Assembly: GCA_965208125.1 (NCBI GenBank)
Contig: OZ242320.1
Location: forward strand, 1,280,001 to 1,344,000
Source of the DNA: Candidatus Latescibacterota bacterium
GTDB lineage: Bacteria; Latescibacterota; UBA2968
DNA length: 64,000 nt
Direction: 5' to 3'
Below the pieces are notes generated by a model. The model did not search any database. It worked only from the letters and a program-made list of their open reading frames with translations, and was not told the origin of the DNA. The translations under genes were made by a program, and so were the position numbers. Below are positions 4,241 to 44,777 of this stretch, one piece after another; positions within the stretch are counted from its first letter, which is position 1, and every line of letters begins with the position of its first letter.

Positions 4241-5020
4241 CTATTGATTCCACACCTCGCAGCCACCAAACGCCATAGTCTCACCCGGAACATATCGCGG
4301 ACGCGCCGCATACACATTTGCAACATCCGGAGAGGCTTTGCCCCGCACGAGAATATTCTCGTGATCTTCTCTATTCACCCATGTCGTCGTCGGAATATAC
4401 CGCAACGTGAGACCAACGCGCCACTGATCCGAAGTATTGGCATTGGAACCGTGGATAATATTCGGATTGTGGATCGAAACATCGCCCGCATTGAGCTCCA
4501 GATCAACCGCATCGGAATCGTCGATCTGATCCGGATGAATACCCACACCCAGCACGTACTTTTCCTGATCCAGATCAATGAGATCGCGGCGCTTGAGCAA
4601 ATGCTTGTTATGCGTCCCCGGCAACACTCGCATACAGCCATTCTCAACCTTCGAAGGCGTCCCCGCAACCCACAAAGTCGTCACTTCCATCGGCTCGAGG
4701 GGCCAATAAGATCCATCTTGATGCCACTGTACCGCCTGACCATCGCCCGGAGGTTTGGCGATATAATGTGCGGCAAACATCGCGACATTCGGCCCGAGAA
4801 ATTGCTCGGCAATATCTACAAGGCGTTCATCGCCCACGAGCCGGTGCATAAATGGATCGCGGGCGAGCAAATGGTGATGCAAACGCTCTGGACGCACGCC
4901 GGGATTCCTCTCAATAAGCCAATGGACGTGTTGCACCGTCTCCTCTGCGAGCGCCGCATCAATAGCCTTACGCGCGATAGCATAGCCATTTTGATCGTAT
5001 TCATTACGCAAATTATTCAT
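4241..5020 (-). CDS. PhyH family dioxygenase
   Basis: Y..NGY, WHQDGSYW, ENGCMRVLPGTH, AGDVSIH...IHGS.AN.S..WR. Confidence 0.9.
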   Translation of the reverse strand: MNNLRNEYDQNGYAIARKAIDAALAEETVQHVHWLIERNPGVRPERLHHHLLARDPFMHRLVGDERLVDIAEQFLGPNVAMFAAHYIAKPPGDGQAVQWHQDGSYWPLEPMEVTTLWVAGTPSKVENGCMRVLPGTHNKHLLKRRDLIDLDQEKYVLGVGIHPDQIDDSDAVDLELNAGDVSIHNPNIIHGSNANTSDQWRVGLTLRYIPTTTWVNREDHENILVRGKASPDVANVYAARPRYVPGETMAFGGCEVWNQ

Positions 5021-5139: not shown

Positions 5140-6597
5140 TCATCCTGATCGAATTTGTCGCAACCTGTTCGCCATCCGCTCGGCAACATCGGGATGGATC
5201 GACGCCATATTCTCAATCTGCCCGATATCATCCGCAAGATAGTAAAGTTGAGGAACTGGAGAATTGCCAGTCTCAATATTCACATTCGTATTCACAGGCG
5301 GACCCTGATGGGGCGGAATAAACACCCAATCCCCCTGCCTCAAAACGGTCTTTGCCTGAATACCCTCCAGAACAATCTCCGCGCGACCCTCATCGCTTTG
5401 CCCCAGCAGAGCATCGAGCACATCCACACTATCGGGACCCGCATTCGCATCCAGCGACACGCCTGCAAGAGCAGCAAAAGACGCGAAAAAATCGACCTGA
5501 CTGACCAGCGCATCAGATTCGCCTATCTCCACAGCACCGGGCCAGGAAACAATAAAAGGCACGCGAGTACCCCCATCGTACATACTGTATTTTCCCCCGC
5601 GCAACGGACCTGCCGGCCGGTGATCGCCGCACAGCTCAACCGCCTCGTCGTAATAACCATCATTCAACACCGGACCGTTATCACTGGAAAAAACCACAAC
5701 AGTATCTTCTTTCAAACCACACCGATCAAGCGCATCGAGCATCTCGCCCACACACCAATCCATCTCGGCAATCGCATCGCCGCGCGAGCCCAATCCAGTG
5801 CTACCCACAAATCGGGGATGGGGCAACCGCGGAACATGGGGCTGGTGAAAAGCGTAATACAAGAAAAAAGGACCATCCTTGTTCTTCTCGACAAATGAAA
5901 CGGCCTTTTCCAAAAACACATCGGCCATATCTTCATCCACCCAAAGAGCTGCCTCGCCCCCCCTCATATACCCGATCCGACTCACGCCATTGACAATACT
6001 CATATCGTGCCCGTGGTGGAACTTCATCTTCAGCAACTCGGGATTGTCTTTCCCGGTCGGCAAACCGGGAAACGGCTTATTCTTATCGTACTCCACCTCA
6101 ATCGGATCGGACGGATCGAGACCCACAACATCTCTGCCATCCAGATACACACAGGGCACGCGATCATTGGTCGCGGCCATGATATAAGAATAGTCAAACC
6201 CAATATCCAGAGGCGTTAGCGGAAGCGGCTCATTCCAATTCTGATTCCCCTCTCCAATACCCAGATGCCACTTACCAACAACACCCGTTGTATAACCAGC
6301 CTCCTTGAGAACAGAAGGCAACGTAGCAGTACCCGGATCTATAATAAGCGGAGCATCGCCGGGCAAAATATGCGCGCGTTCATTGCGCCAGGAATAAGAC
6401 CCTGTAAGCAGGCTATAGCGCGAAGGAGTACACGTCGCCGCCGTAGCATACCCGTGGTAAAACACCAACCCCTCGGAAGCCAACCGATCAATATTGGGCG
6501 TATCGAGCGCCGTAGCACCATAACAACTCACATCTCCAAAACCGAGATCATCCGCGTACATAACAACAATATTGGGACGCTTTGCCGAATCCGTCAT
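5140..6597 (-). CDS. Arylsulfatase (formylglycine-dependent, S1 family)
   Basis: RPNIV..ADDLG, CTPSRYSLLTG (CxPxR), GKWHLG, PHVP, SDNG. RBS GAAAGGA before ATG 6597. Confidence 0.93.
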   Translation of the reverse strand: MTDSAKRPNIVVMYADDLGFGDVSCYGATALDTPNIDRLASEGLVFYHGYATAATCTPSRYSLLTGSYSWRNERAHILPGDAPLIIDPGTATLPSVLKEAGYTTGVVGKWHLGIGEGNQNWNEPLPLTPLDIGFDYSYIMAATNDRVPCVYLDGRDVVGLDPSDPIEVEYDKNKPFPGLPTGKDNPELLKMKFHHGHDMSIVNGVSRIGYMRGGEAALWVDEDMADVFLEKAVSFVEKNKDGPFFLYYAFHQPHVPRLPHPRFVGSTGLGSRGDAIAEMDWCVGEMLDALDRCGLKEDTVVVFSSDNGPVLNDGYYDEAVELCGDHRPAGPLRGGKYSMYDGGTRVPFIVSWPGAVEIGESDALVSQVDFFASFAALAGVSLDANAGPDSVDVLDALLGQSDEGRAEIVLEGIQAKTVLRQGDWVFIPPHQGPPVNTNVNIETGNSPVPQLYYLADDIGQIENMASIHPDVAERMANRLRQIRSG

Positions 6598-6743
6598 ATT
6601 TGTTCTATCCTTTCTCATGCATGGTAATGAACTACTGGCGCAATTGTACCTCGTTGCGTACATTACGGGTTCGCAATATAGGGCGTTATCCAAACCACAA
6701 GCAAGCGGAAACGATTACCACACCCATTTACAAAGGAGAATAT

Positions 6744-7532
6744 ATGATTACTCGATTAACAATTCTCGCATTATTGTTGACCCTGACCGCCCAAAATGCC
6801 ATGGCGGAAACCAATCCCCCAGCCGAAGGATTCAACCAATCAGAATCCGACGCAAAGGCAATAGAAATTGCCGATGCAGTCATGGCAAAAATGGGTGGAT
6901 GGGAAAATTGGAATCAGACCCGATACCTTACATGGCGTTTCTTTGGACGGCGCCTGCACGTATGGGATAAATGGACGGGCAACCTGCGGCATGAAGACGG
7001 GGACATGCTCATCTTGACGAACATAAACACCAAAAAAGGCCGCGTCTGGTTCGGAGGAACAGAGCAAACAAACCCCGACTCAGTAAAAAAATATATGAAC
7101 CAGGGTTACAGGCGGTGGATCAACGACTCTTACTGGCTCGTCATGCCCTATAAATTGAAAGACACGGGCGTCACCTTAAAATACAGCGGCGAAGACAAAA
7201 CCTTGAATGACCGCCCCGCGCACAAATTGACCCTCACCTTTCAAAACACCGGCGTCACGCCGCGAAACAAATACGATGTATGGGTAGATCAGGAGCAGAA
7301 CCTGGTCACAGAATGGGCTTTTTATCCCAAAGCATCGGACGCAGAACCGCGATTCCGCAGCCCGTGGACAAACTGGACAAAACACGGCAACATCCTGCTC
7401 TCCGACGGACGCGGATCAACGCGCAGAGGCGAACGCAAACATACGGATATAGCCGTCTTTGATACATTACCCGCCTCGGTATTTGAAAGCCCCGACCCCG
7501 TAGATCTGATGGCCCTAAAAGGATCGATGTGA
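6744..7532 (+). CDS. Secreted hypothetical protein (possibly DUF6503/LolA-like fold)
   Basis: RBS AAGGAG, signal peptide (..AMA|E), motifs MGGWENW, WINDSYWLVMPYKL.D.GV.L.Y, G.TP...Y. Family assignment is tentative. Confidence 0.7.
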   Translation: MITRLTILALLLTLTAQNAMAETNPPAEGFNQSESDAKAIEIADAVMAKMGGWENWNQTRYLTWRFFGRRLHVWDKWTGNLRHEDGDMLILTNINTKKGRVWFGGTEQTNPDSVKKYMNQGYRRWINDSYWLVMPYKLKDTGVTLKYSGEDKTLNDRPAHKLTLTFQNTGVTPRNKYDVWVDQEQNLVTEWAFYPKASDAEPRFRSPWTNWTKHGNILLSDGRGSTRRGERKHTDIAVFDTLPASVFESPDPVDLMALKGSM

Positions 7533-31913: not shown

Positions 31914-34900
31914 ATGGAAACAAAAAGCATCGTCGTAAAAGGTGCGCGAGTACACAACTTGCAAAATGTAGATCTGACGTTGCCCCGACACGCGCTAATA
32001 TGTTTTACCGGCGTTTCCGGTTCGGGCAAGTCGTCGATGGCTTTTGACACCATCTATGCCGAAGGTCAGCGGCGTTATGTAGAATCCCTATCGGCGTATG
32101 CGCGTCAATTTTTGGGACAGATGGAAAAACCCGAAGTAGATCAAATTACGGGATTGTCGCCAACGATCTCCATCGAACAAAAGACCGCGGGGCGCAATCC
32201 CCGCTCAACCGTGGGCACAATAACCGAAATCTACGACTATTTGCGCGTATTATTTGCGCGAATTGGCACCCCCCATTGCGCACATGACGACACGCCAATT
32301 GGGGCGCAAACGCGCGACGGCATTGTAGATCAAATCATGGCACTGGGTGAGGGCACGCGCATTCACATACTCTCTTCTCTCGTACAGGGGCGAAAAGGGG
32401 AATACCAGGACCTGTTTGAAAATTTGCAAAAAGAGGGATATATCCGCGCGCGCGTGGATGGACAGATTGTAACATTGACCCAGACCCCGAAATTGGAGCG
32501 CTACAAAAGACACGATATCGAAGTCGTAATCGATCGGATTATCGCAAAAAAAACAATGCAGGGGCGCATAGGCGAAGCCGTTGATGCCGGTCTCATAATG
32601 GGTAAAGGAGCGGTCATTGTCAGCGCAGAAGGTGAAGACGACCTTCTGCTGAGTACGCACTTTTCCTGCCCCACCTGTGGACGCAGCGCACAGGAACCTG
32701 TACCGCAATTATTCTCATTCAACAGCCCACAGGGCATGTGCCCCGGCTGTCGCGGTTTGGGCACGCGCTTTGCAATGGATCTGGCAAAAGCCGTTCCCAA
32801 TCCCGAATTGTCCGTACTGGAAGGCGCTATCGCGCCGCTGGGCGTGCCCAAAAATCGGTGGAAATCTCACTATTACGCGGGCGTTTTGAAGCGCCATGGT
32901 GCAAATTTGCAAACGCCATGGAAACGCATTTCACCAGAGGGCCAACAGGCATTATTATACGGCATAGACGGCAAAATGACCTTTGAATGGCGCCGCAGCA
33001 ACGGCAGTATAAAACGCCATCGCGATGGGTTTGAGGGCATCCTGCCCCCAATGGAGCGGCAGTTTGCCGAGGGACGGAGTCTCATCGTACGCAAACGACT
33101 GGCACCCTTCATGCGTGTGGGTATATGTCCCGTATGCGAAGGCACCCGCTTAAAACCCGAAGCCCTCTCCGTCAAAATCGAAGGACACACGCTACCCGAT
33201 GTCACGGCAATGACCGTCGATCGCGCGCACGCCTTTTTTCAGAACCTCAAATTGACCGAGATCCAGGCGCGAATTGCCGAAGACGCCCTGAAAGAAATTC
33301 GCGGGCGATTGAAATTTCTCCTCGATGTGGGTCTCGACTATCTCACACTCAACCGCACGGCACCGACACTATCGGGCGGCGAAGCGCAACGCATTCGCCT
33401 CGCCAGCCAGATTGGATCTGGATTGGTCGGTGTAACCTATGTACTGGACGAACCGTCAATTGGTCTGCACCACCGCGACAATCGGCGATTGCTCAATGCC
33501 CTGTGTCACCTGCGAGATGTGGGCAATACTGTGATCGTCGTCGAACACGACGAAGACACCATGCGGCGCGCGGATCGGGTGGTGGATTTTGGACCCGGTC
33601 CCGGGCACCTCGGTGGTCGAATAGTCGCCGAGGGATCGTGGAAACAGGTAGCGAGAAGAACCCGCTCGGTAACGGGCGCTTATCTCTCGGGAAAAGAAAA
33701 AATAGCAGTGCCCGAAAGGCGCTCCGTATCGCATCGCGGCTTATGGATTCGGGGTGCTCACCACAATAATCTCAAAAATATCGACGTGAAAATTCCCGTC
33801 GGCGTATTTACCTGTGTCACGGGCGTATCCGGATCGGGAAAATCATCGCTAATTGCCGATATCCTCTATCCCGCTCTCGCGCGAGAACTCAACCGCGCAG
33901 AAACGGAAACAGGCGCGCACCGCTGCATTGAGGGCATAGATCTCCTGGACAAAGTCATCGAGATCAACCAGCAACCCATCGGGCGCACACCGCGCAGCAA
34001 CGCGGCGACATACACGGGTGTATTTGATCCCATTCGAAAATTATTTGCCGAATTGCCCGAGTCAAAAGTACGGGGATACAAACCCGGACGCTTTAGTTTT
34101 AACGTAAAGGGCGGCCGGTGCGAGGCGTGTAAGGGCAATGGCGCAAACCTCGTCGAAATGGATTTTCTCGCCGACGTGTGGGTGACGTGTCCCGTGTGTG
34201 AAGGGCGGCGTTTTAATCGCGAAACCCTGGACGTGAAGTATAAGGGCAAATCCATTGCCGATGTGCTGGCGATGGAAGTCGAAGAGGCGCATCTGTTTTT
34301 TCAAGCGATCCCCGGTATTCACCGCATTCTCCAAACCCTGGTTGATGTGGGAATGGGCTACGTCAAATTGGGCCAGCCCGCGCCAACACTCTCCGGTGGC
34401 GAAGCACAACGGGTCAAACTATCAAAAGAACTGTGCCGCAGAAGCACGGGCAAAACCCTGTACATCCTGGACGAACCGACGACGGGCCTGCATTTTGCCG
34501 ATATACAAAATCTCTTGAATGTATTGCATCGGCTCGTGAATATGGGCAATTCCGTGGTGGTTATCGAGCACAACCTGGACGTAATCAAAACCGCGGATTG
34601 GGTAATCGATCTGGGACCTGAAGGCGGCGAAGATGGCGGACAAATTCTGACAGAAGGCACACCCGAACACCTGACGCAATCTCCCAACTCTCATACAGGA
34701 CACGCGCTTTGCGAAGTGCTATCGCGCACGCCACTCGTATCTGGGAAAAACGGTAAACGAATCGCCAATGGCCATGTGCGGACCATTGACATTGTGGGTG
34801 CGCGGGAGAACAACTTACAAAATGTGGATGTATCCATTCCCCGCGAAAAAATGACCGTGATCTCCGGCGTATCGGGTTCGGGAAAATCTTCCCTGGCACT

Positions 34901-37574
34901 CGACACAATTTACGCTGAGGGACAGCGGAGATATGTCGAATCCCTATCCGCTTATGCGCGGCAATTTCTGGGACAGATGCCCAAGCCAAAGGTAGATCGC
35001 GTGGTGGGCTTATCGCCCGCGATCGCCATAGAACAAAAAGCCGCGAGCAAAAACCCGCGCTCGACCGTAGGCACCGTAACAGAGGTTTACGATTACCTGC
35101 GGGCACTCTACGCATTATTGGGCGATACCTATTGCCCAGATTGCGATGTATTGGCGGGCAGTCAGTCCGTTCGGGAAATTGTAACGCGCGTGCTGAAAAT
35201 GAAACGACGCCTCTACCTTCTCGCACCCGTAGAACTCGGCAAAGGCGAAGATTATACCAGCTTGATCAACCGCTTTCGCCGCGAAGGCTACTTGCGCGGC
35301 AGACTCAATGGCGATGTCTTCAACCTGTCAAACCCACCCGAAATCGATTACAGACAGACTCACAGGCTCGAAATCCTGATAGATCGCATAATCGCAGAAA
35401 AAAAGAACCGCAAACGCATCGCGGATTCCATCGAAAGCGCGCTGGATATTTCGGGAGGCATTTTGATCGTCGCATCGCCCGACGACAGCGAAGAAACGCG
35501 ATTCAGCCAGCATCTCTCGTGTCCATCCTGCGGGCGCAGTTTTGAAACAATAACCCCTCAGCATCTATCTTTTAACAGCTCTGAAGGCTGGTGCTTATCG
35601 TGCGAAGGACTGGGAACGCAGCGCGGCATGGGCATCCACACATTAATCCCCGACACTCACAAATCACTGTCCGAAGGCGCAGTACTCGCCTGGGGAAAGG
35701 TAGAACCGCACACACAACTGGGCAACATGCTATCTGCGGTCGGCGAAGCCGCGGGCTTTGACCTGCACATCCCTTTTGCGCAAATATCGGCAAAGGGACA
35801 ACACGCGATCTTATACGGCCTGGGCACACAGTGGCTAAAGACCTCTAAAAATCTCTCATTCCAATTCAAGGGCCTGTTTCCCACAATTGAGACCCTCGTG
35901 CGGCAAGCGCCGCGTTTTCGGCGTCTAATGGGAGACTTTATCCAGGATGTGCCGTGTCCGTCCTGCAAGGGAACCCGTCTAAAGCCAGAAAGTACTGCCA
36001 TAAAACTCTTCGGCAAAACAATGCCCCAACTGGTAGCAATGCCCATCCGCGAAGTACGCACCTATTTCGACACAATGGTATTGGAAGGACAGGCGCGCGA
36101 AGCCGCCGCAGAGGTATTGCACGAAATCCAGAGCCGCCTGCGGTTTCTCGACGAAGTGGGCCTGGGATATTTGAACCTGGGACGGCGAGCACCCACGCTA
36201 TCGGGCGGCGAAGCACAGCGCATTCGCCTCGCCAGTCAGATCGGCTCCGGTCTCACCGGAGTACTCTACGTACTCGACGAACCGACAATTGGCCTGCACC
36301 AGCGCGACAACCACCAGTTATTGGCCGCACTGACACAACTGCGCGACCTGGGCAACTCGCTCCTCATTGTCGAACACGACCGCGAGACCCTGAACAGGGC
36401 GGATCACATTTTGGACTTTGGACCCGGCGCGGGTGTTGAAGGCGGGCGCATAGTAGCTGCGGGCAATCCGCGCAATTTGAAAAGCAACAACGGCTCGGTA
36501 ACCGCGCATTATCTCGCGGGCGATCTGCAAATCGAGGTCCCCGATGTGCGGCGAAACCCCGAACGGGGATCGCTTTCTGTGGTAGGCGCGCGGCATAACA
36601 ATTTAAAAAATGTCCATGTCTCATTTCCGCTGGGCACCTTGACCTGCGTGACCGGCGTATCTGGCTCGGGTAAAAGTTCGCTCGTCAACGACGTACTCTT
36701 CGGCGCGCTCGCCGCCCGCGTGAACCGCGCACAAAAAGCCTGGGGAGAACACGACGATGTGCTGGGACTGGAACTCATCGACAAAGTGATCAACATCGAC
36801 CAGACACCCATTGGCTATTCGCCGCGCAGCAATCCCGCGACCTATGTCAAAGTATTCGACAAAATACGCACCCTGTATGCCAGTTTGCCAGACGCCCAGG
36901 TGCGCGGATTTAAAACCGGGCATTTCAGCTTTAATCACAAGCACGGGCGGTGCGATGCCTGTGCGGGCCTGGGCGCGCGCTGTATAGAAATGCACTTCTT
37001 GCCCGATGTGTGGATCACATGTGAAAATTGTGGCGGAAAGCGCTACAACCGCGACGTGATCGACATAACCTATAAGGGTGCGTCAATCGCCGATGTCCTA
37101 AAAATGACAGTAGCCGAAGCCCTATCGCATTTTACCCATATACCCGGCATCCAGCGATCGCTCCAAACCCTATTTGACGTGGGCCTGGGCTATATCAAAA
37201 TGGGACAGGCATCGACCACACTCTCGGGCGGCGAAGCCCAGCGCGTAAAATTGGCGCGCGAATTGGCGCGACCGAGCACCGGAAAAACCGTGTATATCCT
37301 CGACGAACCGACAACGGGACTGCACTTTGCCGACATCCAGAAATTGCTCGACGTACTCAACCGACTCGTCAACGCGGGCAATACCGCAATCGTAATCGAA
37401 CACAACCTGGACGTAATCAAAACCGCCGACTGGGTCATCGACCTGGGACCAGAAGGCGGAGAAGACGGTGGCGATTTAATAGCTTGTGGAACGCCCGAAG
37501 ACGTGGTATCTGTCACAGCTTCACACACCGGACGATTCTTGAAGGACGTATTGGCAGGTATTGAAACAGGGTAA
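31914..37574 (+). CDS. uvrA: Excinuclease ABC subunit A, tandem double-length form (1886 aa)
   Basis: Two complete UvrA units. Four GVSGSGKSS Walker A, four LSGGEAQR, four LDEP, and zinc fingers in both halves. Confidence 0.97.
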   Translation: METKSIVVKGARVHNLQNVDLTLPRHALICFTGVSGSGKSSMAFDTIYAEGQRRYVESLSAYARQFLGQMEKPEVDQITGLSPTISIEQKTAGRNPRSTVGTITEIYDYLRVLFARIGTPHCAHDDTPIGAQTRDGIVDQIMALGEGTRIHILSSLVQGRKGEYQDLFENLQKEGYIRARVDGQIVTLTQTPKLERYKRHDIEVVIDRIIAKKTMQGRIGEAVDAGLIMGKGAVIVSAEGEDDLLLSTHFSCPTCGRSAQEPVPQLFSFNSPQGMCPGCRGLGTRFAMDLAKAVPNPELSVLEGAIAPLGVPKNRWKSHYYAGVLKRHGANLQTPWKRISPEGQQALLYGIDGKMTFEWRRSNGSIKRHRDGFEGILPPMERQFAEGRSLIVRKRLAPFMRVGICPVCEGTRLKPEALSVKIEGHTLPDVTAMTVDRAHAFFQNLKLTEIQARIAEDALKEIRGRLKFLLDVGLDYLTLNRTAPTLSGGEAQRIRLASQIGSGLVGVTYVLDEPSIGLHHRDNRRLLNALCHLRDVGNTVIVVEHDEDTMRRADRVVDFGPGPGHLGGRIVAEGSWKQVARRTRSVTGAYLSGKEKIAVPERRSVSHRGLWIRGAHHNNLKNIDVKIPVGVFTCVTGVSGSGKSSLIADILYPALARELNRAETETGAHRCIEGIDLLDKVIEINQQPIGRTPRSNAATYTGVFDPIRKLFAELPESKVRGYKPGRFSFNVKGGRCEACKGNGANLVEMDFLADVWVTCPVCEGRRFNRETLDVKYKGKSIADVLAMEVEEAHLFFQAIPGIHRILQTLVDVGMGYVKLGQPAPTLSGGEAQRVKLSKELCRRSTGKTLYILDEPTTGLHFADIQNLLNVLHRLVNMGNSVVVIEHNLDVIKTADWVIDLGPEGGEDGGQILTEGTPEHLTQSPNSHTGHALCEVLSRTPLVSGKNGKRIANGHVRTIDIVGARENNLQNVDVSIPREKMTVISGVSGSGKSSLALDTIYAEGQRRYVESLSAYARQFLGQMPKPKVDRVVGLSPAIAIEQKAASKNPRSTVGTVTEVYDYLRALYALLGDTYCPDCDVLAGSQSVREIVTRVLKMKRRLYLLAPVELGKGEDYTSLINRFRREGYLRGRLNGDVFNLSNPPEIDYRQTHRLEILIDRIIAEKKNRKRIADSIESALDISGGILIVASPDDSEETRFSQHLSCPSCGRSFETITPQHLSFNSSEGWCLSCEGLGTQRGMGIHTLIPDTHKSLSEGAVLAWGKVEPHTQLGNMLSAVGEAAGFDLHIPFAQISAKGQHAILYGLGTQWLKTSKNLSFQFKGLFPTIETLVRQAPRFRRLMGDFIQDVPCPSCKGTRLKPESTAIKLFGKTMPQLVAMPIREVRTYFDTMVLEGQAREAAAEVLHEIQSRLRFLDEVGLGYLNLGRRAPTLSGGEAQRIRLASQIGSGLTGVLYVLDEPTIGLHQRDNHQLLAALTQLRDLGNSLLIVEHDRETLNRADHILDFGPGAGVEGGRIVAAGNPRNLKSNNGSVTAHYLAGDLQIEVPDVRRNPERGSLSVVGARHNNLKNVHVSFPLGTLTCVTGVSGSGKSSLVNDVLFGALAARVNRAQKAWGEHDDVLGLELIDKVINIDQTPIGYSPRSNPATYVKVFDKIRTLYASLPDAQVRGFKTGHFSFNHKHGRCDACAGLGARCIEMHFLPDVWITCENCGGKRYNRDVIDITYKGASIADVLKMTVAEALSHFTHIPGIQRSLQTLFDVGLGYIKMGQASTTLSGGEAQRVKLARELARPSTGKTVYILDEPTTGLHFADIQKLLDVLNRLVNAGNTAIVIEHNLDVIKTADWVIDLGPEGGEDGGDLIACGTPEDVVSVTASHTGRFLKDVLAGIETG

Positions 37575-37941: not shown

Positions 37942-40107
37942 ATGACTCTTAAAACTCATGACGGAGTATCCTCGCTCTCTGAAACCGAGAGCGTAATTAG
38001 AGAATATGAAACAGGAGAAGAGCAGCGACATGCCCAACAATTACTCGGCTCTCTCGTACAGGCCGATCAGTATGTAGGGGAGGTCTATTCGCTTGGGTAT
38101 GAGACCGCTCTTGTGCAAATTCACGATTTCCACCGCCGAGAGGTTGGCGGTATTCCAAGTCTTTGCTTTCTCATCGCCACGCGAATTGGTCCGGACGAGA
38201 CATTCGACTACACTAAGGAAGATAGTTCGATAATTCTACTACGCGTAATGGATGCAGCACCGTTGCCAAACGCGGACGAGGCGACCAGAGTGCGTGTACA
38301 GGCTGCGCAGCAGGTATCTGGTCCTACTGAAGAGCATTGGGATCATTCCGACGTGATGGACTTTAATACTTCACAGCTATTAAGTTACGCCGGAGTGCAG
38401 TGCCGTGTCATCGGGACGTTCTATTTGCAACCTTCAGGCGTTGGGGTCGATGAACGGCTACGTCTCCAGTTTGGTGCTGACCTGTCGAACTATTACCCCA
38501 ACCAAGGGCTGAAGGTTTATAAACCGAATGGCAAGGCTTTGCGGCAGATAGTAAATTATCGTGAGATAGACAGCACTGGAGTGGACATCGGCGAAGTTCG
38601 GTACGCCTCAACCAACCGCGCTTTTCAAGGCATTTTCGACGTTCCAGTGACAATTGTACCGGAAGACTTGTTAGGGCAAAAAAGCGCACTATTCGGGATG
38701 ACACGGACTGGTAAGTCGAATACGACGAAGATCATAGCAGAGGCGGTGTTCAATCTTCGATATAATTCGAATTCGCCGCGGAAGGTGGGGCAGATCATCT
38801 TCGATCCGAATGGAGAATACGCTAATGCCAATGCACAAGACTCCGGTGGGGAGGCTCCAAATGCGCTCAAGAACGTGTGGCGTGGACGCAAGGAGGGTAA
38901 TTCCGAAGATGTGGTTACTTATGGAATCCTTGATCATCCCAATGATCCCGAACGGGAGTTCATGTTGCTAAACTTCCACGCCGAAGAGAACCTACCTATT
39001 GGAAAAGAAATCATTGACGGGGTGCTGCCAGCACGAGACTCAAAGTACATCCAGAACTTCCAGCAAGTTCGTTTACAGCCACTTGAATCAGGAGCGGGAT
39101 TCGGAGACCAGATCCGCTACGCTCGACAAGTGTTGGCATATCGTACCTTGCTGGTAAAGTCTGACTTTACCGCTCCCAACACTATTCAGCCGCGCACTAC
39201 CCTCCCCAACAACCTCTTTAACCAAGACCTGATCCAAGCACTGACAGATAACGGAGACCCCGAATTTGCGTCCGCGGCGCGAACATTTGGAACAGAAATA
39301 CCGAGTTGGGACCGACTGGCGCAGGCGTTCGAAGCACTCCATAGGTTCATAGGGACTAACGATTACAAAAGTTTTGAGAATGAATACATTCAAAACTCCT
39401 CTTCTGGCGAGGCGTGGGCTGATGGAGATCTAAAAGCCATATTAGAGATGATTGCACGTCCGAATGGTGCTCAACTCATTAGACAGGCACGGCCTCAGCA
39501 TACCGAGAGCACTACTACGGATTATGTTGACGATATTTATAATGCGTTAGTTGCTGGGAAACTCGTGATCGTGGATCAGTCCAGCGGAGATGAGGAAATA
39601 AACGACGCCTCGGCGCGTCGAATCGTGCAACGCATCTTTGACGGCAATAAAGAAGCATTCAGAGAGGGACGCTCGAAGGAAGAAATACCGGATATTCTCA
39701 TTTACGCTGAGGAAGCGCATAACCTGCTTCCGTCGGATCGCGAGACAGATTATCGAGATATATGGGTTCGCACAGCAAAGGAAGGCGCAAAGTACAATCT
39801 CGGCTTGATCTACGTCACACAGGAAGTGTCGAGTATCCAAAGGAATATTCTAAAGAATACTGCGAACTGGTTTATCGGCCACCTCAATAACACGGATGAA
39901 ACGCGAGAACTTCGAAAGTTCTATGACTTCGCTGATTTTGAAGGGTCGATTCTCCGCGCCCAAGATAAAGGCTTTCTCCGAGTCAAAACTATTTCAAATC
40001 CTTTCGTGGTCCCCATACAGGTGCAGGAGTTTAAGTTAAAGCTGGTTAAACTGGAGGCTTCTGCATCACAGTCGGGGACTCCTACACAACAACTCAACTT
40101 GGTATAG
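37942..40107 (+). CDS. herA: HerA/FtsK-superfamily ATPase (DUF87)
   Basis: N-terminal HAS-barrel-like region, Walker A GMTRTGKSN, IFDPNGEY, Walker B IYAEEAHN, KEGAKY..GL..VTQ. RBS GAGGT. Confidence 0.88.
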   Translation: MTLKTHDGVSSLSETESVIREYETGEEQRHAQQLLGSLVQADQYVGEVYSLGYETALVQIHDFHRREVGGIPSLCFLIATRIGPDETFDYTKEDSSIILLRVMDAAPLPNADEATRVRVQAAQQVSGPTEEHWDHSDVMDFNTSQLLSYAGVQCRVIGTFYLQPSGVGVDERLRLQFGADLSNYYPNQGLKVYKPNGKALRQIVNYREIDSTGVDIGEVRYASTNRAFQGIFDVPVTIVPEDLLGQKSALFGMTRTGKSNTTKIIAEAVFNLRYNSNSPRKVGQIIFDPNGEYANANAQDSGGEAPNALKNVWRGRKEGNSEDVVTYGILDHPNDPEREFMLLNFHAEENLPIGKEIIDGVLPARDSKYIQNFQQVRLQPLESGAGFGDQIRYARQVLAYRTLLVKSDFTAPNTIQPRTTLPNNLFNQDLIQALTDNGDPEFASAARTFGTEIPSWDRLAQAFEALHRFIGTNDYKSFENEYIQNSSSGEAWADGDLKAILEMIARPNGAQLIRQARPQHTESTTTDYVDDIYNALVAGKLVIVDQSSGDEEINDASARRIVQRIFDGNKEAFREGRSKEEIPDILIYAEEAHNLLPSDRETDYRDIWVRTAKEGAKYNLGLIYVTQEVSSIQRNILKNTANWFIGHLNNTDETRELRKFYDFADFEGSILRAQDKGFLRVKTISNPFVVPIQVQEFKLKLVKLEASASQSGTPTQQLNLV

Positions 40108-40110
40108 ACT

Positions 40111-41475
40111 ATGCCATTTGAAGGCGAATTTGCAAGTTATAAGCCACTCGCACGGATCGCTAATAGCGAACGCGTTCAGGATATTGTGAGTCGATGTAAG
40201 AAACAGGTACCCGATGAAGGGCCAGCAGAGGCAGAACTACTTATTGCCGATGTGAAACCGAGTGACTGGCTACCCGATCTCGTTCTCGCCATAGATGGAA
40301 GTCTCCATCCGCCGGTACCAGTCGAGAATGGATATCCTGGGGCAGAACTGGCCTACCTCACTGTTGCCTCAGTTATTATCGATGTGAAGAAACAACGTGA
40401 ATTGGACCGAAACCGCCCGGTGGCTCCGTTGGTGGCGCGTACAACCGAAGGGGCGGGTAGCATCGACTGTGCGCTTCCCGGTTGCAACGTAGTTGTGGAT
40501 AATGAACTGACTCCAAACGCTTCATTCCGCCGCGTATTCTTTGAGGCCATCCAGGAGAAACGTCCATTCTCTGACGGAGAAACACTACTTGAGACATACG
40601 AGGCACTTTTGAAGTACAAACCTTCGATACGATCGCAGCAGTGTCCCTATGAGGGTTGCGAGTTTGACTACGATCCGCGCCCAGGTATGATGGATTGCAG
40701 ATGCGAACAGAAATTGAATTGGTACTCAACCGATGCCCTCCGCATTCACGAGAGGTTTAATCCGGTAGGACCAAATGGAGCAGTTTTTACAGAGGCAATG
40801 CAGGTGTGGGAGCGGGTGTGGATCGTGAACTTTCTTCGCTGGATTGAGCGCGATCCTCGACGCTTCCGACTGCTTCGCAACCTCGCCATTATTCTCGATG
40901 GACCGCTTGCGGTATTTGGACAACCGGCCTGGCTTAGCCAAGCGATACGTCAAGAATTAAAACGCATCAACGAGGCTGTTCGCAAAGTGATAGATAGCGA
41001 TATTCTGATCGTCGGTATCGTAAAAAGCGGGGCATTTGTTGATCACTACGAGATATTAGATACTCCTACACATGGAACAAACGGAAACTCACGATTCAAG
41101 CCACAGACAGCAGTACTCCTCACAAACGAATATATCCGTACTCACATCGCCATCAGTGCCATCAATGATAAACCGTTTGGTGATGCCACTTACTTTGGGC
41201 GGACGTTTTTCTATAAAACCTCTTCAGGTGCTCGGATCGTTGCCTCCCTTCCCTTTCTCACAGAGGATGCACGGGACCTATCGAGTGGGGATGCAAGGCA
41301 CTTTCCGCGCCTTGCTGATGCCATGAGCCTGCTTGATGCGACCTTCTCAGCACGCTTTCCGAATGCGGTGGCTCCGCTCGTATCAGCCCACGCCGAGGCA
41401 GCGATTCCACTTAATCTTGGACGCGAAGTCCTCGAGCAACTTGCAAAGAAGCTGATGTCCGAGGAGCAATCATGA
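40111..41475 (+). CDS. nurA: NurA-domain (RNase H-fold) nuclease
   Basis: LAIDGS, ILDGPL, VGIVKSG, FFYK, P..P...AH..A. Starts 3 bp after herA. Confidence 0.75.
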   Translation: MPFEGEFASYKPLARIANSERVQDIVSRCKKQVPDEGPAEAELLIADVKPSDWLPDLVLAIDGSLHPPVPVENGYPGAELAYLTVASVIIDVKKQRELDRNRPVAPLVARTTEGAGSIDCALPGCNVVVDNELTPNASFRRVFFEAIQEKRPFSDGETLLETYEALLKYKPSIRSQQCPYEGCEFDYDPRPGMMDCRCEQKLNWYSTDALRIHERFNPVGPNGAVFTEAMQVWERVWIVNFLRWIERDPRRFRLLRNLAIILDGPLAVFGQPAWLSQAIRQELKRINEAVRKVIDSDILIVGIVKSGAFVDHYEILDTPTHGTNGNSRFKPQTAVLLTNEYIRTHIAISAINDKPFGDATYFGRTFFYKTSSGARIVASLPFLTEDARDLSSGDARHFPRLADAMSLLDATFSARFPNAVAPLVSAHAEAAIPLNLGREVLEQLAKKLMSEEQS

Positions 41476-42556
41476 TACAAGAGGGGATAGCACGCTGGGC
41501 TGCCGTAGGTCCGTACTATGCAATGTTTCCAATGCACTTTGCTTTCGAGGTTATTGAGGGGTACACGCAGCCCGGAGACCGCATCCTTGATCCATTCGTT
41601 GGACGAGGGTCAAGTATCTATGCTGCTGCAGCTAAAGAACGAACAGGATGTGGTATAGAGATTAATCCAGTCGGATGGGTGTACAGTAGCGTAAAACTAC
41701 GCCCAGTAACACAAGGGCGCGTTCTTAAGCGCTTGCGAGAAATCGGATATGAGGCTAAAAGAATAGCCATAGGTCGTGCGAACCTACCTACGTTCTTCGA
41801 ATGGGCTTATGCGCCAGATGTGTTGCGTTTTTTACTGGCCTCTCGTGATATCCTGCGCTGGAGAGATAGTAAAGTAGATCGTACATTGATGGCGTTTATC
41901 CTGATACACCTGCACGGCAAACGCCTGGGTTCGCTATCTAACCAGATGCGGGACAGTAAATCAATGGCTCCTGATTATGCCGTGCGGTGGTGGCGCAAGC
42001 GCGAAATGAGACCTCCTGACATAGATCCTGTAGCCTTTTTAGAACAGCGGATTGAACGGCGGTATAAGAAGGGAACACCTGACTTGGAGGGTGAAGTGCT
42101 TCTTGGGGACAGTGTTCAACTACTTAATTCAAATAGGCGACGACGCGCTTTTGCTTTGCCATTTGATCTCCTGTTCACGTCGCCACCCTACTATGGCGTG
42201 ACCAACTATCACTACGACCAGTGGCTCCGTTTATGGATGCTCGGACATGATCCAACTCCGCGATGGCGAGGAGGGCGTTGGCAGAGAAAATTTCAGTCGA
42301 GGTCTGATTACCTCGAACTACTTGCGGATGTGTTTGGTGGGGCTGCCCACGCATGCGCGATAATGCTATTGTCATAGTTCGTACAGATGCTCGTGAGTTT
42401 ACGCACTCGGCTACTGTCCAGGCACTACGAACAGCCTTTCCCAACAAGGATCTGCGTGAAGAACCTCGTCCTTTAAAAAGAAAAACACAAACCGCTCTAT
42501 ACGGCGATACTTCGAAGAAGCCTGGGGAAGTAGATATTATTATGACTCCTAAATGA
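41472..42556 (+). pseudogene. DNA methyltransferase (N4-C/N6-A type), split by a -1 frameshift near 42340-42353
   Basis: GPYYAMFP, motif I ILDPFVGRGS, GIEINP, motif IV FTSPPY. The frame stops at 42377 but the protein appears to continue in 42353..42556 (AIVIVRTDAR...KPGEVDII). ATGA overlap with nurA. Confidence 0.8.
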
Positions 42557-42588
42557 TTGGGAATTATGTAGGATAGTGCCGAAAAAAC

Positions 42589-42617
42589 TTGATATTATGC
42601 TATTACTTTTGTATAAT
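42589..42617 (+). promoter_or_regulatory. Near-consensus sigma70 promoter
   Basis: TTGATA-17 nt-TATAAT with an A-tract immediately upstream. Confidence 0.75.
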
Positions 42618-42623
42618 ATAAAT

Positions 42624-42697
42624 AATTAACCACCCCTGTTGCTTCGGGAGCAGGGCACGGAGCCGTATAGAGATTCTATACGGCTCCTGTATTTTTT
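42624..42697 (+). ncRNA. Putative ~75-nt leader/antitoxin-like RNA (UUCG hairpin plus terminator)
   Basis: CCCTGTT-g-C(TTCG)G-g-AGCAGGG, then a 13-bp perfect stem GGAGCCGTATAGA/TCTATACGGCTCC followed by TGTATTTTTT. It lies between the promoter and the NYN start codon. Confidence 0.5.
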
Positions 42698-42706
42698 GGA
42701 GATTTA

Positions 42707-43360
42707 ATGAAAACAAATGTCTATATTGATGGGCTTAATTTATATTATAGAGCCGTTCAGGGCACACCTTATAAGTGGCTGGATATAGTTAAATTAGTTC
42801 AAAAAAGGTACCCTCAAAACACTATTCGTAAAATTAAGTATTTCACTTCGATTGTACAATCGCGCTCTGATGACCCAGGAAAACCAGTGCGTCAACAGAT
42901 ATACTTGCGGGCTTTACGGACTTTTTCACAAATTGAAATTATTGAAGGAAAATTTCAGACCAACAAAGTTAGACTGCCATTGGCATCACCACCACATAAC
43001 ACTGTAGAAGTTTTGAGAACCGAAGAAAAAAGTTCAGATGTCAATCTGGCTGTTCATCTGTTAAACGATGCTTACAAAAAGGATTATGAAGTTGCTATTG
43101 TTGTGTCAAATGATTCTGATTTATCAGAAGCCTTACGAATTGTGACTCAAGACCTAAACCTGACAGTAGGTGTTGTATTTCCTACTGGTGCGATTGATCC
43201 ACATACAGGCACACGGCATATAGTTAGAAAATCGAGAGATCTTCAAAAATATGCCACATTTATAGGCGAAATTAGATTAGGAGGTCTCTCGCGCAGTCAA
43301 CTGCCTAATACATTGAAAGATGCAAAAGGCACTTTTCATAAACCACCAGAATGGCAGTAA
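42707..43360 (+). CDS. NYN domain (PIN-fold, LabA/DUF88) ribonuclease
   Basis: VYIDGLNLYY, IKYFTS, RQ..YL.AL, EEKSSDVNLA..LL.DA, VVSNDSDL (catalytic Asp set intact). Confidence 0.9.
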   Translation: MKTNVYIDGLNLYYRAVQGTPYKWLDIVKLVQKRYPQNTIRKIKYFTSIVQSRSDDPGKPVRQQIYLRALRTFSQIEIIEGKFQTNKVRLPLASPPHNTVEVLRTEEKSSDVNLAVHLLNDAYKKDYEVAIVVSNDSDLSEALRIVTQDLNLTVGVVFPTGAIDPHTGTRHIVRKSRDLQKYATFIGEIRLGGLSRSQLPNTLKDAKGTFHKPPEWQ

Positions 43361-43476
43361 AGCCTCTAACCTTCCGGCACTACGCTGTATAATCTCAAAA
43401 TGATTTAAGCAACGTTGAATTTAAAATTACGAGAAATAGTGTCATGAGATTACGTGCTTTCGAAAATTTGGATTGA

Positions 43477-43506
43477 GCCATAGCATACGGATGTTATGGC
43501 TTTTTG
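43477..43506 (+). terminator. Intrinsic terminator downstream of the NYN gene
   Basis: AGCCATAGCAT-acgg-ATGTTATGGCT-TTTT. Confidence 0.65.
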
Positions 43507-43592
43507 GTTTTTGAAACAGTTTGGATGCCTATCTCTTTCTTGTGAGCAAACGATTCGGAGTCAAACTATAAAGCGTTAAAAAGGAGTAAAAA

Positions 43593-44777
43593 ATGATTTT
43601 TCGCATATTGCTATCCGTCGCATTACTCTCTACGAGCAGTGCCATAGCCGACCCCTCCAAAATCGACTTTTGGGACACGCAGCGCAAAGGCGCCAATCAA
43701 CAAAATGCACAACACCGTCCCGAATGGTACGTTGCAGCGGGGGAATTGGGATTGGATTATGTACGCCTCTTACCCGATGCATGGCCCGCCGAGGACAGAG
43801 ACTTCCTGATAGGCAATGCGGACAACTTCGAAGCAATCAACGAAACCGATCTATCCCTATTGATCAAAGCACTCGACGAAGCCGAACGCAACGGGATCAA
43901 AGTCGTCCTTACAATGGTCAGCTTACCCGGCGCACGCTGGAAACAATTGAACAATGACCGGGACGATGCGCGACTCTGGAAAGACAAAAAATATCATCTC
44001 CAAGCCTTTGAGTTCTGGCGCCAACTCGCCGCACGCCTGAAAACACACCCCGCCATTGTCGCCTACAATCCCCTCAACGAACCACACCCGGACAAGGCAT
44101 TCGGCTTTGATGCGCCGGACGAAAAATTCGCCCAGTGGTTCAAACGCATCCAGAACACGCCAGCCGACCTCAATCAATTCAACCGGGAAATGGTCAAAGC
44201 AATCCGCTCCGTCGATAAGGACACCCCCATCATCCTCGACGGCTGGTTCTATGCATCTCCCCAGGCATTCGATTATAATCGACCCGTTGACGATGACAAG
44301 GTCTTATACGCCTTTCACAACCCCGGTCCCTGGCAAATGGTAACCTATCGCGTCAATCAAGGCAGATACGCCTATCCAGACCGCGTGCCCAAATCGTGGA
44401 ACGGACCAACGGAATCCTGGACCATTGATCGCCTTGCGCGGGAAATGCACGCAGTTCAACAATTTTCCGAACAATACAACATACCCCCACATCGAATCAT
44501 CGCCTCGGAATTCTGGTACGACCGTCGCCTTGAAGGCGCGGCAGCATATATGGCCGACCTCATCGAAATCTATAACCAGCGCAACTGGCACTGGGCTTTT
44601 TACGCATATCGCGGCACTGGCACATGGGCCGGACTCGATTACGAAATCGCGCCAGGACAAAAAATGGGATGGCGTTACTGGCAGGCTGTTGAACAGGGCA
44701 AAGACCCCGAACCTCTCAAACCGAGGGGGCCAAACCCATTGTGGGAAGTACTGCAGCGGCAGTTTGAAAAAAAATGA
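43593..44777 (+). CDS. Secreted glycoside hydrolase family 5
   Basis: RBS AAGGAG, signal peptide, YVRL, FW..LA.R...HP....Y..LNEP (acid/base), YAFH, SEF (nucleophile), W.WAFY. Confidence 0.85.
   Translation: MIFRILLSVALLSTSSAIADPSKIDFWDTQRKGANQQNAQHRPEWYVAAGELGLDYVRLLPDAWPAEDRDFLIGNADNFEAINETDLSLLIKALDEAERNGIKVVLTMVSLPGARWKQLNNDRDDARLWKDKKYHLQAFEFWRQLAARLKTHPAIVAYNPLNEPHPDKAFGFDAPDEKFAQWFKRIQNTPADLNQFNREMVKAIRSVDKDTPIILDGWFYASPQAFDYNRPVDDDKVLYAFHNPGPWQMVTYRVNQGRYAYPDRVPKSWNGPTESWTIDRLAREMHAVQQFSEQYNIPPHRIIASEFWYDRRLEGAAAYMADLIEIYNQRNWHWAFYAYRGTGTWAGLDYEIAPGQKMGWRYWQAVEQGKDPEPLKPRGPNPLWEVLQRQFEKK

Follow-up and report, generated by a model that had tools for sequence, protein, structure and literature searches.

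A covarying two-hairpin RNA beside HEC-09-family NYN nuclease genes: a candidate RNA-antitoxin module found across many bacterial phyla

The window analysed here is a stretch of 64,000 nucleotides (nt) of the Candidatus Latescibacterota contig OZ242320.1 (positions 1,280,001 to 1,344,000, forward strand; coordinates below count from its first letter). It holds a unit consisting of a small RNA gene and, directly behind it, the gene of an NYN-domain nuclease. An initial annotation, made from the letters alone, had described at this place a promoter, a UUCG hairpin, a 13-bp stem with a T-tract, an NYN open reading frame (ORF) and a downstream terminator, and had proposed an RNA-antitoxin or attenuated toxin module. 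Sequence reading, a pattern scan and folding recovered every one of these elements in its place, and the unit reads as follows.

42589..42617, + strand: sigma-70-type promoter of the small RNA, with TTGATA at 42589-42594, a 17-nt spacer and TATAAT at 42612-42617 (11/12 match in the pattern scan)
42624..42698, + strand: small RNA gene of ~74 nt, matched by covariance model R1 at 42624-42701 (67.3 bits, E 5e-18)
42634..42655, + strand: hairpin P1, made of CCCUGUUGC, a UUCG loop and GGAGCAGGG; 9 positions with one G-G mismatch, cUUCGg closing
42657..42697, + strand: hairpin P2 with its U-tract, an intrinsic terminator; a perfect stem of 13 bp (42659-42687) encloses a loop of 3 nt, then UGUAUUUUUU
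42698..42701, + strand: Shine-Dalgarno sequence GGAG of the NYN gene, from sequence reading; it abuts the U-tract, 5 nt 5' of the ATG
42707..43360, + strand: NYN-domain nuclease gene, 217 amino acids (aa), HEC-09 family (Pfam PF01936, E 2.2e-10; PADLOC HEC-09 model PDLC04163, E 1.2e-36)
43475..43512, + strand: intrinsic-terminator-like hairpin closing the unit, with a 12-pair stem at 43475-43502 and then the T-run TTTGGTTTTT (pattern scan)

Transcription of the small RNA is predicted to start near A42624, and its parts follow in the order 5' single-stranded tail ending in a C-run, P1, a junction of 1-2 nt, P2 and the U-tract. The family consensus described below adds two outer pairs to P2 (C42658-G42689 and A42657-U42690) and leaves U42688 bulged; A42691 and U42692-42697 come next. 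The untranslated stretch had been said to end about 10 nt before the ATG, which was close: the exact gap is 9 nt from the last U (42697), and it is filled by the ribosome-binding site. Because this leaves no room for a second promoter between U-tract and ATG, the NYN mRNA would have to arise by read-through of P2. Lying between the only promoter and the ribosome-binding site of the nuclease, the RNA should therefore greatly outnumber the protein. The 91-nt stretch folds at -35.3 kcal/mol (z -4.57), a value equalled by none of 200 shuffles. In a pattern scan of 4 kb, promoter-like sites (6 vs 6.1 in shuffles) and terminator-like sites (4 vs 4.3) were not significant on their own; it is the conservation of the motif across homologous loci, and not these counts, that places the RNA beyond chance. 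The R1 match is the sole one in the 64-kb window. The G+C content is 0.37-0.38 over 42500-43499 and ~0.50 on either side, and this low-G+C stretch covers exactly the RNA-NYN module, which suggests from base composition a recent horizontal acquisition.

The nuclease belongs to a family that has already been catalogued. PDLC04163 covers the protein from end to end (profile positions 5-203 of 203) and is its sole PADLOC match, while no NCBIfam model matched it and a sequence-profile search of the PDB returned nothing at E up to 1. Of 5849 candidates, 5651 were protein relatives at E up to 0.001, with 98% identity for the nearest. Across 40 aligned sequences, residues D8, E106, E107, D111, D136 and D138 show no variation, which bears out the earlier statement that the catalytic aspartates are intact; in the HEC-09 preprint (bioRxiv 10.1101/2024.01.29.577857), D8, D111, D136 and D138 are equated with the MARF1 aspartates, an assignment that comes from that source and not from a superposition of ours. 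An AlphaFold2 model of the protein (mean predicted local distance difference test score, pLDDT, 91.5; predicted template-modelling score, pTM, 0.86) has as its closest PDB folds the LabA-like structure 2qip and the mouse and human MARF1 NYN domains, 5yaa and 6fdl. These domains share with it the fold and the acidic active site. In contrast to them, the modelled protein adds a beta-hairpin and a C-terminal part of ~60 residues, and it has a dedicated RNA gene beside it. HEC-09 itself was introduced as a MARF1-like NYN candidate embedded in Hma systems (Payne et al., bioRxiv 10.1101/2024.01.29.577857), and as far as that text is accessible it is presented as a single-gene candidate, with no mention of an RNA partner.

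Some homologues carry annotations of another kind. Those on Pseudomonas and Klebsiella plasmids (L090:1974-2936 and NC_019328.1, NZ_CP005971.1, OW848835.1) are labelled '6-hydroxy-3-succinoylpyridine hydroxylase / nicB / HspA', which looks like a propagated misannotation. Furthermore, a Cupriavidus plasmid (L094:1471-2412) and a Rhizobium locus (H48) encode a longer NYN coding sequence of 313 aa annotated as 'antitoxin Xre/MbcA/ParS toxin-binding domain-containing protein'; this may be an NYN domain fused to a domain known from toxin-antitoxin (TA) systems.

In a genome scan with one genome per species, at least 584 places encoded an NYN relative. We kept the best 80 loci (43-69% protein identity), which span Latescibacterota, Chloroflexota, Acidobacteriota, Actinomycetota, Armatimonadota, Gemmatimonadota, Planctomycetota, Verrucomicrobiota, Patescibacteria, a Trueperaceae genome, Alpha- and Betaproteobacteria, and others. 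A scan for hairpins followed by T found a terminator ending 9-46 nt 5' of the NYN start in 39/76 loci, with UGCUUUUU nearly always next, and a common motif was recognised by reading the DNA upstream of the NYN genes. The consensus of 49 copies, aligned with MAFFT, is AUCCCCCCUGUnGCUUCGGnGGCAGGG-C-GCGAGGCCGCC...GGCGGCCUCUGCUUUUU. RNAalifold folded it into P1, a hairpin of 9 pairs capped by UUCG, and P2, a hairpin of 12 pairs from which one U bulges out.

Pairing and covariation were counted on this alignment, which had not been fitted to any structure. Compensatory changes were seen in 20 of the 21 pairs among the 49 sequences (9/9 of P1 and 11/12 of P2), so that the alignment of homologous upstream regions for covarying hairpins, proposed in the initial annotation, came out clearly positive. 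Paired cells amounted to 93.9%, compared with 76.4% in column shuffles, and the covariation score of 0.548 was reached by 0/500 shuffles (0.212 in shuffles) and fell to 0.09-0.125 when partners were slid by 1-3 columns. In P2, 97.6% of the cells are paired. The outermost P2 pair is A-U in the window and G-C in 41 sequences, both sides having changed. Conservation of sequence as well as of pairing was found in the cUUCGg loop columns of P1 (at least 90% conserved) and at the base of the P2 stem (family consensus GCGAGG...CCUCUGC with the bulged U); the single-stranded 5' tail, the loop and the P2 base are conserved across phyla. Among 1015 cells, 81 are G-U and 11 are A-C, an excess that fits an RNA made from this strand and not a DNA hairpin. 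Judged by these comparative patterns, the element is demonstrably a conserved, structured RNA transcribed from this strand.

No Rfam family accounts for it. The window RNA had no match in Rfam 15 at E up to 10, and 13 loci gave no gathering-level match on the RNA; around one further copy (L059) a search at E up to 10 returned weak matches of 10-16 bits only, far under the gathering scores. The Rfam check asked for earlier thus names no family, either for the window or for the 13 loci. Other Rfam matches were a below-threshold cyano-S1 inside the NYN coding region (19.7 bits, gathering score 39.9) and, elsewhere, RNAI, tRNA and a cobalamin riboswitch. We found no description of an RNA partner for NYN proteins in open-access papers and preprints, so that one published elsewhere stays possible; in a genome-language-model preprint on non-coding RNA (10.64898/2026.09.22.753630) the word 'NYN' is absent from the text. 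Thus the earlier remark that no characterised system has this effector stands as regards the RNA partner and has to be amended as regards the protein, which the HEC-09 preprint already lists and records as tested once without a phenotype.

R1 was run on the window and the 80 loci (899,754 bases, both strands, E up to 0.1) and gave 81 matches. The ~72-nt motif adjoins the NYN gene in 78/80 loci; in the two loci lacking a match, L027 and L079, the NYN gene lies at a contig end. No match with E < 0.01 was found away from an NYN gene in the same bases. Only L060, with a further copy, and L055, with a further weak match (E 0.016), exceeded one match per locus. Upstream of the NYN gene on the same strand lie 62/81 matches, most of them ending 0-34 nt 5' of the NYN start and seven at 47-72 nt. 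Another 9/81 are upstream and divergent, all in Acidobacteriota, and 10/81 are downstream and convergent, including the weak L055 match and the second L060 copy. A promoter-like site scoring at least 9/12 occurs within 45 nt 5' of the motif for 45/81 matches, compared with 31/4000 windows of 53 nt drawn at random from these loci; among the divergent copies, 6/9 have such a site. A T-rich tail (at least 5 T in ten bases starting 15 nt before the match end, around the end of P2) was present in 64/80 copies.

Individual loci show further arrangements. In L060, two RNA copies flank the NYN gene, at 5914-5985 (+) and 6674-6746 (-), and L036 has two copies in tandem upstream of it, at 4950-5020 and, in degenerate form, before 5093. 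The outlier is L039:5386-5460, which lies 525 nt upstream as the lone distant same-strand copy; the stretch between looks coding.

Since 19/81 matches are divergent or convergent, the RNA is a separate gene and not only a leader. This bears directly on the idea that it is a cis-acting leader or attenuator and nothing else, with regulated read-through of P2 (for example by NYN binding to its own leader) and no function in trans. Such an arrangement would agree with the 62/81 matches that occupy a 5' leader position and end a few nt before the ribosome-binding site, and with the window, where NYN can be expressed only through read-through. A cis leader or riboswitch, however, sits always in the 5' untranslated region on the same strand, and the 9 divergent and 10 convergent matches put the RNA outside the NYN transcript, the divergent copies having promoters of their own; inspection of the consensus, moreover, suggested no alternative anti-terminator pairing. 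We consider a purely cis-acting role distinctly improbable. Of the two options offered by the initial annotation, RNA antitoxin or attenuated toxin, the evidence favours an RNA partner acting in trans, and the 19/81 opposite-strand matches oppose regulation purely in cis. Cis regulation may nevertheless operate alongside a function in trans.

The same survey disposes of the fallback that had been named at the outset, namely that the hairpin does no more than terminate the upstream methyltransferase operon. On this account the operon would be the HerA/methyltransferase one and the promoter match a matter of chance. The nearest ORF upstream (42353-42556) does share its strand with P2, which follows ~100 nt later, and P2 may stop upstream transcripts too. 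The motif, however, accompanies NYN in 78/80 loci regardless of the upstream gene or its strand, and we give this account practically no credence. As the sole explanation, an operon terminator is ruled out by the NYN linkage and the strand arrangements.

An element working at the level of DNA, for example a hairpin used in recombination or bound by a protein within an NYN-carrying mobile cassette, would be in keeping with the patchy distribution, the frequent mobile contexts and the low-G+C stretch in the window. Against it stand 81 G-U versus 11 A-C cells, the promoter in 45/81 matches and the T-rich tail in 64/80 copies, all of them strand-specific marks of a transcript, and we hold it to be highly improbable.

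Small RNAs that lie adjacent to the toxin gene and are transcribed divergently are typical of some type I systems, and the divergent copies described here recall that arrangement. The RNA might then act in a type I-like manner, as an antisense regulator whose pairing with the NYN mRNA prevents translation of that mRNA or destabilises it. Complementarity to the toxin mRNA, which marks a type I RNA, was not found: the RNA paired with its own NYN start region (-25.55 kcal/mol) no better than with non-cognate ones (-25.17 kcal/mol; one-sided Mann-Whitney p 0.40, 76 loci), and with its own whole NYN mRNA no better than with dinucleotide shuffles (mean z 0.13; z < -2 in 6/76 loci), this test being blind to complementarity between stretches that every locus conserves. 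Furthermore, the RNA hardly changes in sequence over loci whose proteins diverge to 43% identity. We therefore regard an antisense mode of action as very unlikely.

Protein neighbours were surveyed in 37 loci picked from 52 with long flanks (147 ORFs), of which the last five loci were dropped, leaving 127 ORFs from 32 loci. Pfam searches on these 127 flanking ORFs revealed no recurring protein partner of NYN, in agreement with the earlier observation that the unit contains no protein antitoxin ORF. An SNF2/NOV_C helicase lies beside the NYN gene in L005, L040, L043 and L044, with a DUF1156 methylase also in L005 and L044; some loci are placed between such a helicase and such a methylase. Other contexts include a ResIII helicase with an N6/N4 methylase, CBASS (SMODS, SAVED) and HEPN and HepT proteins, and mobile contexts comprise TrwB/TrwC conjugation genes, a relaxase, an integrase, a transposase and KilA-N.

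NYN homologues were also found in 448 plasmid records (Klebsiella 207, Xanthomonas 59, Escherichia 46) and in 3 phage records; a Mycobacterium prophage copy lies between the integrase and the immunity repressor. Run without filters on 11 fetched plasmid and phage loci, R1 gave a match beside NYN in 11/11, 5 strong and 6 weak:

Mycobacterium prophage: 63.4 bits, convergent
Paenarthrobacter plasmid: 53.1 bits, convergent
Leptospira plasmid: 43.6 bits
E. coli ColE1-type plasmid of 3461 bp (L081): 35.8 bits
Phaeobacter plasmid: 26.1 bits
Klebsiella, Xanthomonas, Granulicella, Thiothrix, Pseudomonas and Aeromonas: 19.2 to 12.9 bits (E 5e-4 to 0.05), too weak to stand alone

Reading these 11 loci and four more revealed a common plan of at least one hairpin with a C-rich 5' flank, after which an AAACCGC...GCGGUUUUUU-type terminator immediately precedes the start. 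The comparison of loci, which takes in many phyla, plasmids and a prophage, shows the RNA, on either strand, to be the only constant neighbour of this NYN subfamily.

ColE1-type plasmids of 3.5-5.7 kb carry copies in E. coli, Klebsiella and Salmonella. One of them, the 3461-bp plasmid of E. coli from river water, is present in 4/5426 complete E. coli genomes; on it, the RNAI of the ColE1-type replicon (L081:1113-1214, minus strand, 93.8 bits) lies 46 nt past the NYN stop, and the remaining annotated genes encode a VbhA-family antitoxin and a helix-turn-helix protein.

One plasmid lineage differs in the form of the RNA. On a 4479-bp plasmid of K. quasipneumoniae, L082:954-1075 contains 3.8 tandem copies of a 33-nt P1-like unit (Tandem Repeats Finder score 174), each a hairpin of the form CCUGUGGC-GUG-CCGCAGG-like with an AACCC flank, and the array sits between a promoter-like stretch and the terminator before NYN. 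Proteins at least 95% identical to the L082 NYN occur in 17 plasmid records. This was the sole tandem array in the 92 loci scanned, and none was found in the window when tandem repeats were sought over 42300-43700. The initial annotation had set the RNA apart from toxI by its lack of tandem repeats; this is correct for the window, and the L082 array from Klebsiella brings the family closer to type III than had been expected. Repeated units ahead of a terminator are the classic arrangement of type III TA systems. The array suggests the P1 hairpin with its C-rich flank as the unit recognised by the protein.

Gammaproteobacterial plasmids carry further variants upstream of NYN (L092:880-1140, L093:500-763, L089, L091 and L095), in which a different first hairpin bears a GCGAUUAAGUU box. 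L092 and L093 have two GCGAUUAAGUU boxes each, with the AAACCGC...GCGGUUUUUU-type terminator next. From its sequence, the GCGAUUAAGUU-box form looks like a second variant of the same RNA plan.

How the two genes work together can be approached through known systems. The classical type III TA families toxIN, cptIN and tenpIN share one common toxin fold. Like them, the present module runs from a promoter through a small non-coding RNA and an intrinsic terminator to a ribonuclease gene, and it lacks a protein antitoxin; like them, it is found on plasmids, in prophages and in proximity to defence genes, and its L082 lineage has a tandem array of the RNA unit. The module differs from these systems in that the effector has an NYN (PIN-like) fold and is not ToxN, CptN or TenpN, in that one two-hairpin unit makes up the RNA of the window and of 91/92 loci scanned, and in that the RNA may lie on the opposite strand. 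An RNA directly upstream with an intrinsic terminator between, as type III systems have it, is seen in the window and for 62/81 matches, and is not seen for the other 19. Because the toxin fold differs and the window has no repeat array, the module is type III-like in layout but stands outside toxIN, cptIN and tenpIN.

The nearest precedent for its possible working is AbiF (Abi_2) with the abiF RNA motif, or RCd22 in C. difficile. The abiF motif belongs to Rfam and is distinct from the RNA of the module, which has no match there; the proteins differ likewise, AbiF being of the HEPN type and the present one NYN. According to the report on that system, the abiF RNA motif beside AbiF was shown to be a type III-like antitoxin, active in cis and in trans (PMC12373285).

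We propose, with a probability of roughly 0.5, that the RNA and the nuclease form a two-gene module in which the small RNA inhibits the NYN ribonuclease as an RNA antitoxin does its toxin. Binding of the RNA by NYN, toxicity of NYN and its neutralisation by the RNA are steps that we infer by analogy with those systems. The components would be the ~74-nt RNA, with its own promoter, and the NYN-fold ribonuclease of the HEC-09 family. The RNA would bind NYN, most likely through the P1 hairpin with the 5' C-rich flank, and would keep the bound nuclease inactive, as a type III antitoxin does. If the supply of RNA stopped, through shut-off of host transcription by a phage or through loss of the plasmid, the RNA, presumed short-lived, would decay, and the freed nuclease could cut cellular or phage RNA and stop growth, with abortive infection or post-segregational killing as the outcome. 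The wider claim, that this is a phylum-spanning new class of RNA-protein TA or abortive-infection module, in which a dedicated two-hairpin RNA that is not in Rfam restrains an NYN-fold ribonuclease, with one unit in most lineages and arrays of it on some enterobacterial plasmids, we hold tentatively, at a little less than even odds.

Several observations weigh against the antitoxin proposal. The HEC-09 representative was tested once and protected against none of the phages tried, and the accessible text of the preprint (bioRxiv 10.1101/2024.01.29.577857) mentions no toxicity. The sequence conservation of the P2 base exceeds what a terminator needs, and the proposed mechanism gives no account of it. 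Because 19/81 matches are not upstream on the same strand, dosage control by a terminator is not universal; and because the array occurs in 1/92 loci and the window has a single copy, the processing of a repeat precursor that defines classical type III systems is not general here. In addition, many loci sit among housekeeping or ordinary metabolic genes.

Part of this evidence would find a place if the RNA were instead a required subunit of the nuclease, whether by scaffolding it, by activating it or by providing a fixed targeting element, in the manner of Y RNA with Ro60, so that the active enzyme is a ribonucleoprotein. Linkage, covariation and the occurrence on either strand fit this equally well; the conserved 5' tail, loop and P2 base fit specific protein contacts of any kind; and a subunit role would account for the absence of reported HEC-09 toxicity, as far as the accessible text of the preprint goes. 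The conserved unpaired segments are invariant, however, hence the RNA is no programmable guide. The order promoter, RNA, terminator and gene, with its forced excess of RNA, and the L082 array are moreover known hallmarks of RNA antitoxins, and the presence of the module on small plasmids fits a function in addiction. We judge the subunit role to be unlikely, yet worth serious consideration beside the antitoxin.

If the antitoxin proposal is correct, the NYN nuclease and its dedicated RNA would carry the RNA-antitoxin principle over to another widespread nuclease fold, and a new toxin fold and an RNA architecture without repeats would join the type III systems. The AbiF case is a recent precedent for ribonucleases outside classical type III having RNA antitoxins as well (PMC12373285). 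HEC-09, so far a catalogued candidate without a function, would become a defined two-component system, and the negative phage result obtained with it as a single-gene candidate could be explained. Since the protein family is already known as HEC-09, the new part is the RNA partner, and the motif is an undescribed, strongly covarying family fit for Rfam.

Upstream of the unit, the window contains the following genes, the last of which ends shortly before the RNA.

31914-37574, + strand: double UvrA of 1886 aa, two complete tandem UvrA copies (NCBIfam UvrA 2700 bits in 2 stretches; PADLOC mad3 E 6e-177)
37942-40107, + strand: HerA-like ATPase, from a profile match
40111-41475, + strand: uncharacterised ORF of 454 aa
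41472-42377, + strand: DNA methylase ORF, matching just profile positions 161-213 of PF01555
42353-42556, + strand: ORF of 67 aa in a different frame from the methylase, the last ORF upstream of the RNA

HEC-09 as described resembles the present unit in its protein, its MARF1-like NYN fold and its position in or beside methylase-containing defence systems; the window differs in that the neighbours are HerA-like, uncharacterised and methylase genes. No Hma model was found among the PADLOC matches listed for these neighbours (for two of them the best 25 of 32 and the best 25 of 36), and window neighbours do match HerA and type II methylase PADLOC models. The genes from 37942 to 42556 are close-packed, with starts near or overlapping the preceding stops. 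The run of HerA-like, 454-aa and methylase genes may be a defence operon, and its methylase ORF may be frameshifted or truncated. Downstream of the NYN unit, the next gene in the window encodes a GH5 cellulase.

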